Positions 1 through 5,697 of a stretch of DNA of 5,697 bases are shown here, one piece after another. Positions within the stretch are counted from its first letter, which is position 1, and each line of letters starts with the position of its first letter. Both the position numbers and the translations under genes were made by a program. The notes under the pieces were generated by a model that was not told the DNA's origin, did not search any database, and worked only from the letters and a program-made list of their open reading frames with translations. Source of the stretch: a virus (taxonomy: Duplodnaviria > Heunggongvirae > Uroviricota > Caudoviricetes); IMG/VR virus record IMGVR_UViG_2579778952_000008; one strand, written 5' to 3'.

Positions 1-918
1 TTACGCCTTCTTTATATCCTCCATAATTCCAGAGTGGGACATATTTGGGACATTATCACCAAAAATGTCGTCTATTTTCCTCGCATGCTCTGTCAAATGA
101 TTAGGCGCAAGGTGAGCATACCTACGAACCATTTCTATGGACTCCCATCCGCCCATTTCCTGAAGCACTGATAATGGGACGCCTGACTGAATCAGCCAGC
201 TTGCCCAGGTGTGTCTGAGGTCATGGAAACGGAAATCTTCAATTCCTGCACGACGACAAGCTGATAGCCATGATGTCTTGCTGTCGATGCGCATCTTCCT
301 GACCGCAGGCGTTGATGTTCCATCTGCTCGCTTAGCCGCCTTGGTATGTACAAACACCCATTTGTGATGCTTGCCTATTTGATCACGCAACACTTTACAG
401 GCGGTATCGTTCAGCGCCACACCAATGGCGCGGTTTGATTTGCTCTCTTCTGGATTCACCCAGGCAACTCGTCGCTGCATGTCGATTTGTTGCCATTCCA
501 GATTTATGATGTTCGACTTTCTCAGACCAGTTGCCAGCGCAAACTTGACGACAGATTTCAGTGGTTCGGGGCACTCATCAATAAGGCGTTTTGCTTCCTC
601 CTTTTCCAGCCATCTGACTCGCTTGTTTCTGACCGCTGGTATCTTGATGACAGGCGCTTTTTCCAGCCACTTCCAGTCGCGTTCTGCAGCACGGAGAATG
701 GCCTTTATCATGGCAAGATGCTTTGCCTTTGTCTGAGTTGATACTGGCTTTGGTTCATAAACAGGCGGTTGCCGTGTTGTGAGGTAAGGAGATTTTGGCT
801 TGGTTGGATCTTTACGTGTTGCCTGTAGGCGGCCTGTTCGTATCCAGTTGGTGGCGGTTGGTCTGGATATCTTAAGAAACTGACAGGCCTCATCGAGTGT
901 GAGGCTGTATGATTCCAT
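1..918 (-). CDS. int: Phage tyrosine integrase (305 aa from ATG at 918; ORF track extends to a GTG at 948). Catalytic domain complete, N-terminal region atypical.
   Basis: Translation shows tyrosine-recombinase catalytic motifs: ATGLRKSN (box I Arg), [10 protein letters not shown] (H-x-x-R), [15 protein letters not shown] (catalytic Tyr). Strong SD GAGGT 5 nt upstream of the ATG at 918 (sequence GAGGTAACCATGG on minus strand). N-terminal 35 aa ([26 protein letters not shown]) resemble an Xis/AlpA-type HTH. The C-terminal two-thirds resemble the P22/DLP12 IntD family as I recall it. Stop codon is at bases 1-3. Confidence 0.85.
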
Positions 919-1168
919 GGTTACCTCTGCTTTTTGAACGCATGTCACGTAACTTCTTAATGTGTTCTGCCGTTTCGATCTCTTCTGCTATCCGATCTGC
1001 ATCAGCTTTATTCACAGGTTCAAAGTCATGATTAAAGCGGAACATGCTGGCGATACATGTTCTGCCTTTTCGGATGTAGTGAACTTTGTTGTGGGTAGAA
1101 CGCAGGATTTTGCAGGGAGTGCCGTGGTGGTCGACGTACCAGGTGTTAGGAAAAATGATTCTGAACAT
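890..1168 (-). CDS. 92-aa small basic protein overlapping the int start by 29 nt; possible excisionase-position gene or integrase arm-binding-like domain (function unresolved).
   Basis: ATG at 1168 preceded by strong SD (GAGGTG, 5-nt spacer). Motif IFPNTWY near the N-terminus resembles the PPNLY motif of the lambda Int arm-binding domain. The 29-nt overlap with the int start mimics the xis/int overlap in lambda. Confidence 0.5.
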
Positions 1169-1215
1169 TTTTACACCTCAGTTGGACGATGTTGAAATTT
1201 GCTGCTTTGAGGCCA

Positions 1216-1434
1216 TCACAGTCCCCATTGTTTGTTCTTAAGTTCGATCTCCTCCTGGCAACTCGCACAAGTTCGACAACCCTGAACAGCCAGGCGTCTT
1301 CGCTCATCTATCGGATCGCCACACTCACAACAATGAGTTGCGGATACAGTCTGGTAGTTCAGACGACGCATTTTTATTGCTGTATTGCGCTGTAATTCTT
1401 CGATTTCTGATGCTGAATCAATGATGTCTGCCAT
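1216..1434 (-). CDS. TraR/DksA-family C4 zinc-finger protein (72 aa)
   Basis: CxxC-x14-CxxC motif (C35/C38 ... C53/C56) in a 72-aa protein, size and motif spacing like F-plasmid TraR and phage DksA-like proteins. Weak SD (AGGGA) upstream. Confidence 0.7.
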   Translation of the reverse strand: MADIIDSASEIEELQRNTAIKMRRLNYQTVSATHCCECGDPIDERRRLAVQGCRTCASCQEEIELKNKQWGL

Positions 1435-1487
1435 CTTTCATTAATCCCTGAATTGTTGGTTAATACGCTTGAGGGTAAATGCGAATA

Positions 1488-1510
1488 ATAAAAAAGGAGC
1501 CTGTAGCTCC
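1488..1510 (-). terminator. Putative rho-independent terminator for leftward transcription, downstream of the 93-aa ORF
   Basis: GGAGC (1496-1500) / 5-nt loop / GCTCC (1506-1510) hairpin. On the minus-strand RNA the stem is followed by UUUUUUAUUAUU (plus-strand A-run 1488-1495). Confidence 0.4.
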
Positions 1511-1532
1511 CTGATGATTTTGCTTTTCATGT

Positions 1533-1814
1533 TCACCGTTCCTTAAAGACGCCGTTCAACATGCCGATCGCCAGGCTTAAATGAGTCGGTGTGAATCCCA
1601 TCAGCGTTACCGTTTCGCGGTGCTTCTTTAGTACGCTACGGCAAATGTCATCGACGTTTTTATCCGGAAAATGCTGTCTGGCTTTTTTGATTTCAGAATT
1701 AGCCTGACGGGCAATGCTGCGAAGGGCGTTTTCTTGCTGAGGTGTCATTGAACAAGCCCCATGTCGGCAAGCATAAGCACACAGAATATGAAGCCCGCTG
1801 CCAGAAAAATGCAT
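1533..1814 (-). CDS. 93-aa hypothetical exo-xis-region protein with N-terminal Cys/His cluster; same length and relative position as lambda ea8.5 (identity unverified)
   Basis: ORF starts 10 nt after the orf63 stop (tight packing suggests coupling). N-terminal C12, C16, H18, C21 cluster, then a predicted helical 70-aa region. An alternative internal start (MTPQQ, ATG at 1746-1748) would give 71 aa. Confidence 0.5.
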   Translation of the reverse strand: MHFSGSGLHILCAYACRHGACSMTPQQENALRSIARQANSEIKKARQHFPDKNVDDICRSVLKKHRETVTLMGFTPTHLSLAIGMLNGVFKER

Positions 1815-1824
1815 TCAGTGGTTG

Positions 1825-2016
1825 TCATACCTGGTCTCTCTCATCTGCTTCTGCTTTCGCCACCATCATTTCCAGCTTTTGTGAAAGGGATGTGGCTAAC
1901 GTATGAAATTCTTCGTCTGTTTCTACTGGTATTGGCACAAACCTGACTCCAATTTGAGCAAGGCTATGTGCCATCTCAATACTCGTTCTTAACTCAACAG
2001 GAGATGCTTTGTGCAT
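1825..2016 (-). CDS. Lambda orf63 homolog (exo-xis region protein, 63 aa)
   Basis: Protein [23 protein letters not shown]... matches my recollection of lambda orf63 almost residue for residue. Same length, same 28-nt overlap with orf60a as in lambda. SD GGGAGG upstream. Confidence 0.8.
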   Translation of the reverse strand: MHKASPVELRTSIEMAHSLAQIGVRFVPIPVETDEEFHTLATSLSQKLEMMVAKAEADERDQV

Positions 2017-2171
2017 ACCGCCTCCCGTTTATTATTTATCTTCTCAGCCAGCCGCTGTGCTTTCAGGGGATTTCTGATAACAGAAAGGCCGGGAAATACC
2101 CAGCCTCGCTTTGTAACGGAGTAGACGAAAGTGATCGCGCCTACCCGGATATTATCGTGAGGATGCGTCAT
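1989..2171 (-). CDS. Lambda orf60a homolog (60 aa from second in-frame ATG; ORF track gives 62 aa from 2177)
   Basis: Protein [24 protein letters not shown]... matches recalled lambda orf60a. The ATG at 2169-2171 overlaps the exo stop codon (ATGA), as in lambda. Confidence 0.8.
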
Positions 2172-2848
2172 CGCCATTGCTCCCCAAATACAAAACCAAT
2201 TTCAGCCAGTGCCTCGTCCATTTTTTCGATGAACTCCGGCACCATCTCGTCAAAACTCGCCATGTACTTTTCATTCCGCTCAATCACGACATAATGCAGG
2301 CCTTCACGCTTCATGCGCGGGTCATAGTTGGCAAAGTACCAGGCATCTTTTCGCGTCACCCACATGCTGTACTGCACCTGGGCCATGTAAGCCGATTTTA
2401 TTGCCTCGAAACCACCGAGCCGGAATTTCATGAAATCCCGGGAGGTAAACGGGCATTTCAGTTCAAGGCCGTTGCCGTCACTGCATAAACCATCGGGAGA
2501 GCAGGCGGTGCGCATACTTTCGTCGCGATAGATGATCGGGGATTCAGTAATATTCACGCCGGAAGTGAATTCAAACAGGGTTCTGGCGTCGTTCTCGTAC
2601 TGTTTTCCCCAGGCCAGCGCCTTAGCATTAACTTCCGGAGCCACACCGGTGCAAACCTCAGCCAGCAGGGTGTGGAAGTAGGACATTTTCATGTCAGGCC
2701 ACTTCTTTCCTGAGCGGGGCTTTGCTATCACGTTGTGAACTTCTGAAGCGGTGATGACGCCGAGCCGTAATTTGTGCCATGCATCATCCCCCTGTTCGAC
2801 AGCTCTCACGTCGATCCCGGTACGCTGCAGGATAATGTCCGGTATCAT
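2168..2848 (-). CDS. exo: Lambda-type exonuclease (Red-alpha, Exo), apparently intact, 226 aa
   Basis: 226-aa translation is near-identical to lambda Exo as I recall it ([45 protein letters not shown]...GFVFGEQWR). SD AAGGTGG upstream. ATGA overlap with the upstream bet stop. Confidence 0.95.
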
Positions 2849-3039
2849 GCTGCCACCTTCTGCTCAGTGGCTTTCTGTTTCAGGAATCCAAGAGCTTTCA
2901 CTGCTTCGGCCTGTGTCAGTTCTGACGATGCGCGAATGTCGCGGCGAAATATCTGGGAACAGAGCGGCAATAAGTCGTCATCCCATGTTTTATCCAGGGC
3001 GATCAGCAGAGTGTTAATCTCCTGCATGGTTTCATCGTT
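2845..3039 (-). pseudogene. bet: bet (Red-beta) 3' fragment encoding only the C-terminal ~64 aa; 5' part deleted
   Basis: Minus-strand translation ...[64 protein letters not shown] matches the lambda Beta C-terminus. Upstream of residue N (base 3039) the ORF has no Bet similarity and is antisense to P. Confidence 0.85.
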
Positions 3040-3040
3040 A

Positions 3041-3643
3041 CAGCAGGTAGCGCAGATCATCAATGGTGTGTTCAGCCAGTTACTGGCAACTTTCCCGGCG
3101 AGCCTGGCTAACCGTGACCAGAATGAACTGAACGAAATCCGCCGCCAGTGGGTTCTGGCTTTCCGGGAAAACGGGATCACCACAATGGAACAGGTTAACG
3201 CTGGAATGCGCGTAGCCCGTCGGCAGAATCGACCATTTCTGCCATCACCCGGGCAGTTTGTTGCATGGTGCCGGGAAGAAGCATCCGTTATCGCCGGACT
3301 GCCAAACGTCAGCGAGCTGGTTGATATGGTTTACGAGTATTGCCGGAAGCGAGGCCTGTATCCGGATGCGGAGTCTTATCCGTGGAAATCAAACGCGCAC
3401 TACTGGCTGGTTACCAACCTGTATCAGAACATGCGGGCCAATGCGCTTACTGATGCGGAATTACGCCGTAAGGCCGCAGATGAGCTTGTCCATATGACTG
3501 CGAGAATTAACCGTGGTGAGGCGATCCCTGAACCAGTAAAACAACTTCCTGTTATGGGCGGTAGACCTCTAAATCGTGCACAGGCTCTGGCGAAGATCGC
3601 AGAAATTAAAGCTAAGTTCGGACTGAAAGGAGCAAGTGTATGA
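3041..3643 (+). pseudogene. P: Replication protein P, 5'-truncated (roughly residues 33-233 of lambda P retained); peaD-like
   Basis: Plus-strand translation from QQVAQIINGVFSQLLATFPASLANRDQNE... to ...AKIAEIKAKFGLKGASV matches lambda P C-terminal ~200 aa. No native start; the frame upstream of 3041 is antisense to bet/exo. ATGA overlap with ren at 3640-3643, as in lambda. Confidence 0.85.
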
Positions 3644-3942
3644 CGGGCAAAGAGGCAATTATTCATTACCTGGGGACGCATAAGAGCTTCTGTGCACAGG
3701 ACGTTGCCGCGGTAACAGGCGCAACCGTAACCAGCATAAATCAGGCTGCGGCTAAAATGGCGCGGGCAGGAATCCTGGTCGTTGATGGTAAGGTCTGGCG
3801 AACGGTGTATTACCGGTTCGCTACCAGAGAAGAACGGGAAGGAAAGGTGAGCACGAATCTGATTTTTAAGGAGTGTCGCCAGAGTGCCGCGATGAAACGC
3901 GTATTGAGGGTATATAAAAGAACATCAATGGGTACACAATGA
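3640..3942 (+). CDS. ren: Ren-like protein (100 aa) with divergent C-terminal ~10 aa; likely renD-type remnant
   Basis: MTGKEAIIHYLGTH...VWRTVYYRFATREEREGK...KECRQSAAMKRVL matches lambda Ren through about residue 90, then diverges (RVYKRTSMGTQ). The divergence point coincides with a shift to AT-rich DNA. Confidence 0.75.
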   Translation: MTGKEAIIHYLGTHKSFCAQDVAAVTGATVTSINQAAAKMARAGILVVDGKVWRTVYYRFATREEREGKVSTNLIFKECRQSAAMKRVLRVYKRTSMGTQ

Positions 3943-4009
3943 TGAAACAGGTGAGTTGATTTCAAACTGTAGTACAATTCTCTCCAGTTTGAACAGGAAA
4001 GAATATGCT

Positions 4010-4342
4010 ATGAACCCTTATATTTATCTTGGTGGTGCAATACTTGCAGAGGTCATTGGTACAACCTTAATGAAGTTTTCAGAAGGTTTTACACGGTTAT
4101 GGCCATCTGTTGGTACAATTATTTGTTATTGTGCATCATTCTGGTTATTAGCTCAGACGCTGGCTTATATTCCTACAGGGATTGCTTATGCTATCTGGTC
4201 AGGAGTCGGTATTGTCCTGATTAGCTTACTGTCATGGGGATTTTTCGGCCAACGGCTGGACCTGCCAGCCATTATAGGCATGATGTTGATTTGTGCCGGT
4301 GTGTTGGTTATTAATTTATTGTCACGAAGCACACCACATTAA
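4010..4342 (+). CDS. emrE: EmrE small multidrug resistance (SMR) efflux transporter, 110 aa
   Basis: Translation MNPYIYLGGAILAEVIGTTLMKFSEGFTRLWPSVGTIICYCASFWLLAQTLAYIPTGIAYAIWSGVGIVLISLLSWGFFGQRLDLPAIIGMMLICAGVL.INLLSRSTPH matches E. coli EmrE including the essential Glu14. SD AGGA about 11 nt upstream. The ORF-track N-terminal extension (from 3956) is not supported. Confidence 0.95.
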   Translation: MNPYIYLGGAILAEVIGTTLMKFSEGFTRLWPSVGTIICYCASFWLLAQTLAYIPTGIAYAIWSGVGIVLISLLSWGFFGQRLDLPAIIGMMLICAGVLVINLLSRSTPH

Positions 4343-4373
4343 AAATAATTTGTTTCTAAACGACTAAAATATG

Positions 4374-4412
4374 GAGGCTCTTATATTTATATGAGCCTCG
4401 TTTTATGCTTTT
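4374..4412 (+). terminator. Putative rho-independent terminator downstream of emrE
   Basis: GAGGCTC (4374-4380) / 12-nt loop / GAGCCTC (4393-4399) perfect 7-bp inverted repeat, followed by GTTTTATGCTTTTTG. Confidence 0.5.
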
Positions 4413-4598
4413 TGTTAATGTCTTTATTTTTTTATGTATTCTTTTGTGCTTTCAAGATTATGGCGTAAGAAAATTGCAATACGATTATTGTTGTATATTC
4501 AAGATAATGTGACCTTAATTGTCTTTTTAAATAAAAATTAAACAAAAATTATATCTCACCACTAAGGTTTATAGAAGCATACGTTAGCAGGTGTCACC

Positions 4599-4944
4599 AT
4601 GAAAAAAGCCATAGCATATATGCGATTTTCATCACCAGGTCAGATGTCTGGCGACTCATTAAACCGACAGAGAAGACTTATTGCTGAATGGTTAAAGGTA
4701 AATAGTGATTATTATCTTGATACCATAACATATGAAGATTTAGGATTAAGTGCATTCAAAGGAAAGCATGCACAATCAGGAGCTTTTTCGGAATTTTTAG
4801 ATGCTATAGAGCATGGTTATATATTGCCAGGAACTACATTGTTAGTTGAAAGTCTGGACAGACTTTCAAGAGAAAAAGTCGGTGAAGCGATTGAGCGTCT
4901 GAAATTGATTTTGAATCACGGTATTGATGTTATAACTCTTTGCG
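4599..4944 (+). pseudogene. ybcK: Serine recombinase (resolvase/invertase-type N-terminal catalytic domain; ybcK-like), truncated after ~115 codons by IS1 insertion
   Basis: MKKAIAYMRFSSPGQ...LLVESLDRLSR is a serine-recombinase catalytic-domain signature. The reading frame runs into the IS1 left end and stops 2 codons later (..VITLCG*). Matches my recollection of the K-12 DLP12 YbcK N-terminus. Confidence 0.8.
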
Positions 4945-4967
4945 GGTGATGCTGCCAACTTACTGAT
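4945..4967 (+). repeat. IS1 left terminal inverted repeat (IRL)
   Basis: GGTGATGCTGCCAACTTACTGAT, the canonical IS1 terminus. Confidence 0.8.
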
Positions 4968-4999
4968 TTAGTGTATGATGGTGTTTTTGAGGTGCTCCA

Positions 5000-5275
5000 G
5001 TGGCTTCTGTTTCTATCAGCTGTCCCTCCTGTTCAGCTACTGACGGGGTGGTGCGTAACGGCAAAAGCACCGCCGGACATCAGCGCTATCTCTGCTCTCA
5101 CTGCCGTAAAACATGGCAACTGCAGTTCACTTACACCGCTTCTCAACCCGGTACGCACCAGAAAATCATTGATATGGCCATGAATGGCGTTGGATGCCGG
5201 GCAACCGCCCGCATTATGGGCGTTGGCCTCAACACGATTTTCCGCCATTTAAAAAACTCAGGCCGCAGTCGGTAA
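5000..5275 (+). CDS. insA: IS1 InsA (transposition inhibitor / N-terminal part of transposase), 91 aa, GTG start
   Basis: Translation [40 protein letters not shown]... matches IS1 InsA. Confidence 0.95.
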
Positions 5276-5697
5276 CCTCGCGCATACAGCCGGGCAGTGA
5301 CGTCATCGTCTGCGCGGAAATGGACGAACAGTGGGGATACGTCGGGGCTAAATCGCGCCAGCGCTGGCTGTTTTACGCGTATGACAGGCTCCGGAAGACG
5401 GTTGTTGCGCACGTATTCGGTGAACGCACTATGGCGACGCTGGGGCGTCTTATGAGCCTGCTGTCACCCTTTGACGTGGTGATATGGATGACGGATGGCT
5501 GGCCGCTGTATGAATCCCGCCTGAAGGGAAAGCTGCACGTAATCAGCAAGCGATATACGCAGCGAATTGAGCGGCATAACCTGAATCTGAGGCAGCACCT
5601 GGCACGGCTGGGACGGAAGTCGCTGTCGTTCTCAAAATCGGTGGAGCTGCATGACAAAGTCATCGGGCATTATCTGAACATAAAACACTATCAATAA
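5194..5697 (+). CDS. insB: IS1 InsB reading frame (expressed as InsAB' transposase via -1 frameshift)
   Basis: Translation ...[36 protein letters not shown]...HYLNIKHYQ matches IS1 InsB. The frame is -1 relative to insA. Confidence 0.9.
5251..5257 (+). promoter_or_regulatory. IS1 programmed -1 ribosomal frameshift site (A6C slippery motif) in the insA/insB overlap
   Basis: AAAAAAC at 5251-5257 inside the insA-insB overlap; a known IS1 mechanism. Confidence 0.8.

Follow-up and report, generated by a model that had tools for sequence, protein, structure and literature searches.

Comparison of a 5,697-bp stretch of viral DNA (the whole of it is called here the window) with lambda and with related prophages of Escherichia coli shows that a single illegitimate deletion in a lambdoid prophage of the DLP12 type at argU has left its scar at positions 3039-3040, bringing the 3' end of bet against the 3' part of P. 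Taken alone, this joint is ordinary prophage decay, a new rare allele of a well-known feature, the deletion scars of DLP12. Population data lead us to infer, however, that its two breakpoints are not random, and that they come from a set of about 27 TA-centred sites with dyad symmetry, which have been joined in many pairings elsewhere; we propose that such sites are cut and rejoined. We regard it as probable, with good confidence, that the scar, the membership of its breakpoints in this set and the cut-and-rejoin proposal hold together.

The bet-P joint and its surroundings

The window comprises the left part of the prophage, with truncated int-xis, ea-type ORFs, exo, remnants of bet and P, ren, emrE and a partial ybcK. 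According to the ORF listing, int and xis are both truncated and form a fusion (1..948, minus strand), and small ea-type ORFs lie between this fusion and exo. The exo gene (2168..2848, minus strand), located directly downstream of the bet remnant, is intact and encodes a protein of 226 aa from the lambda exonuclease/YqaJ family, complete and identical to lambda Exo at 221 of 226 residues (Pfam PF09588, E = 2.6e-29). Of bet only the last 196 nt remain (2845..3040, minus strand, equivalent to lambda 32025..32220), i.e. the codons for Bet residues 198-261 and the stop, and the N-terminal 197 codons are gone from the window; the translation of 2845-3039 is identical to lambda Bet at 63 of 64 residues. 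The P remnant (3039..3643, plus strand, lambda 39679..40283) runs from the second position of lambda codon 33 to the stop codon, with about 606 nt of the gene left and the first 33 codons gone; 198 of the 200 residues encoded by 3041-3643 are identical to lambda P residues 34-233 (Pfam PF06992, E = 3.6e-62), and from 3039 rightward the remnant shows 99% identity with P of HK140 and lambda-like phages. Both remnants are therefore colinear, at high identity, with the C-terminal parts of their lambda counterparts. RefSeq already annotates both as partial genes (e.g. partial Bet in strain E200086). To the right, ORF listing and homology identify an intact ren (3640..3942, plus strand, 100 aa). The similarity to lambda and to nin-type prophages ends at 3915, where the emrE-ylcJ-ybcK island starts. 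Right of emrE only the 5' part of ybcK, a serine-recombinase gene, is present, as it is interrupted by IS1 at 4944/4945; the position of IS1 at 4944 is unique among the complete genomes compared.

BLASTN against lambda aligned window 1239..3040 with lambda 30418..32220 (96.5% identity) and window 3039..3915 with lambda 39679..40555 (96.4% identity). On the bet side the identity extends through ...CATCGTTA (3040), and on the P side it starts at TACAGCAGG... (3039). When the left parent, the product and the right parent are aligned, the crossover dinucleotide TA (3039..3040) is the sole sequence common to both parents. The bet parent reads ...GGTTTCATCGT-TA-ACCGGAG... (immediate context CATCGT-TA-ACCGG, which contains the palindrome GTTAAC), the P parent reads ...AAGCCGCAGG-TA-CAGCAGGTAGCG... 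(immediate context GCCGCAGG-TA-CAGCAGG), and the window reads ...GGTTTCATCGT-TA-CAGCAGGTAGCG..., with no filler bases. GTTAAC of bet (TA at lambda 32219-20) and GGTACAG of P (TA at lambda 39679-80) have thus been joined at their TA, a single copy of which has been retained. This is the signature of a microhomology deletion, with a short identity at both parents, one copy of it left and no foreign DNA. An adjacent deletion mediated by an insertion sequence would have left that element at the joint; we found none there, where bet and P abut directly, and none at related joints either.

The preliminary description of this DNA, made from the sequence alone, had bet ending at 3039 and P beginning at 3041. 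It was right to within one base: both remnants are as it described them, but there is no gap at 3040, and the true crossover lies inside the TA of 3039-3040, which belongs to both sides and is the only microhomology at the junction. The minus strand of 3040..3183 is antisense to P and does not correspond to the 5' region of bet, and the P similarity is contiguous over residues 34-233.

The DNA missing between the two parents of the joint amounts to 7,460 bp in lambda coordinates, in keeping with the 7-8 kb estimated earlier, but to only 4.5-6.1 kb in closer intact relatives. The comparison shows that the deletion removed the 5' part of bet, gam, the entire immunity region, the O-like initiator together with ori, and P codons 1-33. 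The prophage is no longer capable of repression, early-operon transcription or replication. The expectation that repressor, early promoters and initiator would all be missing was borne out: we found no sigma-70-like promoter within window 2500..3700, and the entire prophage of E. coli E200086, the nearest complete genome, contains neither a repressor gene nor a cro/cII-like gene nor one for an O-like initiator.

Alleles of the DLP12-type prophage at argU

No cryptic prophage of E. coli is more prevalent than DLP12, which is present in 74% of strains (PMC6379469). E200086 is 100% identical to the window over 1..4816 and has the tRNA-Arg gene argU 16 bp before int, at whose stop codon the window begins. 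The argU locus, the intD-type integrase and the ren-emrE-ylcJ-ybcK block right of the P remnant confirm the earlier assignment to defective prophages of the DLP12 type. In E200086 the element sits between the sfm/fimZ cluster and the late genes ybcN, rusA, quuD, an ompC-annotated porin gene (which presumably occupies the position of nmpC in K-12), essD and rrrD.

The exact joint is rare. It is present in 7 of 5,426 complete E. coli genomes, namely in six human isolates that are close relatives of one another (100% identity) and in TUM9803 (98%), as well as in one metagenome contig, and our search found it in none of the species-representative genomes and none of the IMG/VR contigs. Because the same 201-bp joint recurs in these seven independent complete genomes and the metagenome contig, it is real sequence and not an assembly artefact. 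In TUM9803 the joint is accompanied by a complete intD and a right arm of the nin type, and the emrE-ybcK island is absent; since intD is intact in this carrier of the joint, the joint is older than the int-xis deletion and the IS1 insertion of the window.

The preliminary description had raised the question of a breakpoint shared with K-12, which is answered in the negative. DLP12 of K-12 occupies the same argU locus, its integrase is 99.7% identical to that of the window over 1..770, and in both elements the emrE-ylcJ-ybcK island is present and the region for immunity and replication initiation is absent. However, K-12 joins exo (window-equivalent 2447) to P (window-equivalent 3332), forming the joint known as exoD-peaD, and it has lost the ea-type genes, the bet remnant and half of exo while keeping intD intact, whereas the window retains an intact exo, the bet remnant and the longer portion of P and has a truncated int. 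The K-12 joint is found in 306 genomes, as compared with 7 for that of the window. A third allele, represented by LD27-1 (32 genomes), has exo at about codon 9 (...CCCGGTA) joined to the exact P position used in the window, and not to bet. In a pairwise comparison K-12 differs from the LD27-1 allele by the loss of 666 bp across the exo-P joint of that allele, and the exoD-peaD joint of K-12 is demonstrably a later deletion nested within the LD27-1 allele.

Less decayed alleles at argU possess genes for an XRE-type repressor, an HTH cro-like protein and a YdaT-domain protein, together with an O-like gene of 1,020 bp, and the genes lost from the window were probably not lambda's own cI, cro, cII and O. 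The earlier list of lost lambda genes hence stands as to the class of function, but probably not as to the identity of the immunity genes. Among other alleles at argU, P is intact in PK8276, along with the immunity region, and in HCM-25C-3, along with gam and the N-terminal portion of bet; in EC6563 bet is complete and truncated gam is joined to truncated P; further joints occur in PSS-07, the E. coli B type, KFu019 and EC50. The window allele is shown to be one of many independent decay outcomes of the same prophage.

TA-centred joints and the reuse of their endpoints

We compiled every deletion joint for which both parents were found, using 16 E. coli loci and more than 120 IMG/VR contigs compared all against all; the loci were reached from the window joint and from P-containing contigs, and the sample represents one region of one phage family. 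Of the 31 distinct mapped joints, several of which share endpoints and may be sequential, making the effective number of independent events lower than 31 (S3, for instance, is nearly identical to the window), 21 (68%) cross at a TA common to both parents and 10 do not. At the TA joints the base that precedes TA is always that of the left parent, and the base that follows is that of the right parent. Simulated random deletions with at least 2 nt of microhomology in the same sequences gave TA in 5-8% of cases, and the binomial probability of 21 out of 31 is at most 5e-11 even at p = 0.15. Together the 21 TA joints have 42 endpoints, which fall on 27 sites; the null mean is 40.5, and not one of 50,000 simulations gave 27 or fewer.

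These sites conform to a dyad of 10 bp, C-S-G-G-TA-C-C-S-G, with C at -4 in 14 of them, G at -2 in 17, G at -1 in 15, C at +1 in 12, C at +2 in 14 and G at +4 in 15. In the two sites of the window, with the sequences CATCGTTAACCGG (bet) and CCGCAGGTACAGC (P), GTTAAC in bet is a perfect palindrome and GGTACA in P matches GGTACC at 5 of 6 positions. The partners of a joint are usually unlike in the flanks around TA, and for this reason the dyad motif is no by-product of homology between them.

Both endpoints of the window are used elsewhere with other partners. The P endpoint is joined to int in S3 (...GCTGGTA/CAGCAGG), an allele type of 2 genomes in which the 1,906 nt right of the joint match the window at 100% identity, to exo in LD27-1, and to xis2 in two IMG/VR contigs (L143 and L144). 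The bet endpoint is joined to rrrD in NT1F10, to NinG in FORC064, whose prophage is at the lambda att site, to gam in the loci L109, L140 and L142, and, in L137 and L138, to a site close to the N region (bet/GGGAAGGGG), while the orf60a-bet joint of HCM-25C-3 keeps the opposite side of the same bet TA. Two joints at the bet site use an A/AA overlap with a partner that has no TA, which suggests that a break at a hotspot is also repairable by plain end joining. Counted over the set, the bet and P endpoints were each used 4 times, the gam site and a site termed "x" 3 times each, and exo1, O, exo-ds, orf60a and xis2 twice each; the bet TA and the P TA of the window are thus the two most reused sites. 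Other pairings are exo1-O and exo-ds-O2. A scan of species-representative genomes for further bet-site joints returned only chance 19-mer matches in unrelated MAGs.

Two-base overlaps are frequent in illegitimate deletions, and for a single joint such as bet-P the overlap is also what one would expect from chance end joining at microhomology, which counts against our reading. One could accordingly hold that all these deletions are random illegitimate events (by slippage or microhomology end joining) with chance 2-bp overlaps, that the sharing of endpoints reflects descent and nested deletions, and that the motif is a small-sample artefact. The nesting of the K-12 deletion within the LD27-1 allele, the near-identity of S3 to the window on both sides and the 10 of 31 joints that are not TA speak for this explanation. 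On the other hand, nested events would have to end on an older joint repeatedly, and the same sites occur in unrelated pairings and from opposite sides (orf60a-bet, bet-gam, exo1-O, exo-ds-O2). Moreover, the TA share is 68% instead of 5-8%, the reuse of sites was seen in no simulation, and the dyad extends into flanks where the partners usually differ. We consider random deletion an unlikely explanation of the whole set.

The controls are ordinary cases. A 138-bp deletion in host fimZ occurred at an ordinary 13-nt direct repeat, and lambda nin5, which we considered as a possible TA deletion, is ruled out as such by its ordinary 10-nt direct repeat. Short-repeat deletions of the nin5 and lacI type likewise keep one copy of the shared sequence and lose the DNA in between, but in joints of the window type the overlap is TA only, recurs in 21 of 31 cases and is flanked by a dyad. 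That TA joints are a general trait of lambdoid mosaic boundaries is also ruled out: among 363 general homology boundaries at the same loci, 9.6% end in TA, as compared with 7.2% ten bases inward. Use of a secondary attachment site by IntD was rejected as well; P shares 9 nt (GCCGCAGGT) with the T-arm of argU and exo1 also shares 9 nt, but in an inconsistent register, and these matches are probably due to chance. The TA hotspot pattern, although provisional in a sample reached from the window joint, is statistically strong and suggests that prophage decay at these loci is non-random.

Candidate mechanisms and their implications

We propose that the sites with a TA dyad would be cut through both strands or would exchange strands, the stagger being 2 nt or the cut blunt between T and A, and that two such sites would then be rejoined, both strands being broken or exchanged symmetrically at TA. 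The reciprocal excised circle would join the left part of P to the right part of bet and would read ...CAGGTAACCGG... A hybrid joint would keep TA with one good half-site on each side and may be usable for the next deletion, which would explain S3, LD27-1 and NT1F10 whether or not they descended from a window-type allele. Extending this to the whole family, lambdoid prophage decay in E. coli may proceed mostly through sequence-preferring cut-and-rejoin at TA within a dyad of about 10 bp, by stepwise deletions from fixed anchors, for example the bet GTTAAC and P GGTACAG sites of the window, with YbcK, a host nuclease or a topoisomerase as the putative enzyme. We offer this as a tentative generalization, a real possibility on which we would lean slightly to the doubtful side. 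The ten joints without TA and the absence of observed inversions weigh against the cut-and-rejoin proposal. We know of no enzyme with such TA specificity, and we found neither one nor a description of a TA-centred, site-reusing process of prophage deletion in open-access papers, although older work on illegitimate recombination may hold some.

Besides a TA-cutting nuclease with subsequent ligation, the candidates include serine recombinases acting at pseudo-sites, either YbcK itself, a large serine recombinase whose gene lies 1 kb rightward in almost every DLP12 allele, or invertases of the Pin family, with a 2-nt stagger at the central TA. As at the crossover sites of these enzymes, the joints share an identical central 2-bp overlap, to which the crossover is restricted, within dyad-symmetric flanks, and the joint would still be recombinogenic; a hybrid joint that stays a site would explain the reuse of endpoints. 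YbcK has the domain architecture Resolvase, Recombinase and Zn_ribbon_recom (Pfam). Large serine recombinases with relaxed, multi-site targeting do exist (PMC10083194). Nonetheless, the motif found here is short (only about 10 bp, whereas large serine recombinases as a rule use att sites of 40-50 bp) and degenerate, we saw neither reciprocal products nor inversions, and some overlaps are non-identical, the bet site having also been joined via A/AA overlaps to partners without TA. YbcK lacks DUF4368, the domain typical of the multi-targeting clade (PMC10083194). A palindromic TA overlap should permit inversions, but we found none between sites among 137 loci, where selection may favour deletions. 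TUM9803 possesses the joint but no ybcK island, and the ybcK of the window itself is broken by IS1. Our paper search found no functional study of YbcK. On balance we judge a serine recombinase unlikely to be responsible.

Alternatively, the breaks could be made by E. coli topoisomerase I, which would cut T/A with a C four bases upstream, or by gyrase or Topo IV, type IIA enzymes whose stagger would be 4 bp, and the ends would anneal via TA. E. coli topoisomerase I cleaves in vivo at TA within TCNTT/A (PMC9352719), and the bet site, TCGTT/A, fits this sequence. Over the set, however, C occurs in the topoisomerase I register in 18 of 52 cases as compared with a background of 23%, which is no enrichment; the C that is enriched is found one position outward of this register, and the flanks are rich in GC and not in AT. 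Transfer on the same strand was rejected on this lack of enrichment at -4 and on a manual tally, in which it fits only 2 of the 19 first-compiled TA joints. For a type IIA enzyme, a 4-bp stagger followed by loss of the adducted 5' nucleotide, a step that we infer, would give hybrid outer bases, but the flanks lack the published determinants, -4G, -2A and -1T (PMC10117906). The 4-bp stagger of gyrase or Topo IV as such was discarded, as the heteroduplex model predicts four central bases from one parent, which are not seen. We regard topoisomerase breaks as improbable.

A further explanation that invokes transposition is that copies of a TA-duplicating insertion sequence (IS630/Tc1-like) at two TA sites recombined and that the remaining copy later excised precisely, which would yield clean TA joints with anchored, reusable endpoints. 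Yet the 137 related loci show only duplications of 9, 5 and 3-4 bp (IS1, IS2 and IS3-family, where annotated), and we found no element with a TA duplication in these loci and none at any hotspot. We also take the target of IS630 to be CTAG, unlike the GG-TA-CC motif. The probability of this scenario is very small. Two other candidates were rejected on inspection. Pseudo-ends of IS1 were considered since the gam site resembles what we take to be the IS1 end sequence, but the crossover lies 4 nt inside and not at the tip; and a crossover of the integron type (G/TT) or by a tyrosine integrase, at the edge of the overlap, gives the wrong origin for the flanking bases.

The bet-P joint documents the loss of immunity and replication genes in one DLP12 allele and helps to order the steps of its decay. 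Prophage erosion is commonly modelled as random deletion followed by selection. If most deletions indeed use a limited number of TA-centred sites, the paths of decay would be partly predictable, and identical breakpoints in different strains would no longer be proof of common descent. There would also be a concrete activity to seek, one that removes toxic early regions of prophages, and the bet and P sites of the window, as the best-sampled hotspots, would be natural substrates for such a search.

Reuse of the deletion sites

The sites that serve as deletion hotspots are found in other combinations in related loci. We detected joints of orf60a to bet, bet to gam, exo1 to O, and xis2 to orf60a, and the alternative pairings map to positions 4070-4074 in L130 (HCM-25C-3), 4140-4142 in L109, 743-744 in L086, and ~2808 in L129. 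These joints show reuse on either side of the sites, also in prophages located at other loci.

Two of the sites share a short stretch with argU, the tRNA gene used by DLP12 as its attachment site. The P hotspot (window 3031..3039) has 9 nt (GCCGCAGGT) in common with the argU T-arm (L001 9355..9363, in the nearest complete genome, E200086), and exo1 also has 9 nt in common with the T-arm, in a register different from that of P. This likeness is probably due to chance. The 19-mer CTGCATGGTTTCATCGTTA is matched exactly in unrelated MAG contigs (L146-L154, from Desulfobacterales, Prevotella and others), which we considered as bet-site joints and rejected as chance matches, as the homology to bet ends with the word itself.

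The P remnant and the sequence to its right

The reading frame of P remains open upstream of the joint, across the antisense bet and exo sequences (window 2774..3643, plus strand). An in-frame ATG at 3027 (plus strand) opens a potential fused ORF that would encode MVSSL followed by residues 34-233 of P, the region bearing the DnaB-binding function of lambda P. Expression of this fusion is doubtful, because we found neither a promoter-like site nor an obvious ribosome-binding site for the ORF.

In exo the window is 100% identical to LD27-1 and K-12, whereas across P-ren-emrE (window 3036..4241) these two alleles are only 97% identical to it, with a drop to 94% in 3332..3730. This pattern of identity points to a recombination patch rightward of the P endpoint that the alleles have in common, with a different lambdoid phage as its source.

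The emrE-ylcJ-ybcK island has its left border (window ~3905..3920) within the 3' end of ren, where 3915 (...GGGTATAT) is the last position with homology to either lambda or TUM9803, a nin-type allele. The border also coincides with a GGTA-type sequence.

The xis-int fusion and ybcK

A second deletion joint lies at ~762-770, inside an ORF (1..948, minus strand) that is a fusion of the xis N-terminus with the ~257 C-terminal aa of the integrase. The deletion comprises 475 bp with reference to HCM-25C-3 and others, and the overlap at the joint is TT or irregular, not TA. Because its integrase lacks the N-terminal domain, the window allele is unable to excise.

The serine-recombinase gene ybcK (window 4599..5697, including IS1 from 4945) is split by IS1 at 4944/4945, and the window ends within the element. 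In the sister strain E200086 IS1 is inserted elsewhere in ybcK, after window position 4816 (L001 14217..14986), and is flanked by a 9-bp duplication of 4808-4816. In five other sister strains the gene is uninterrupted. Thus, ybcK has been struck by IS1 twice, independently, in one clone.
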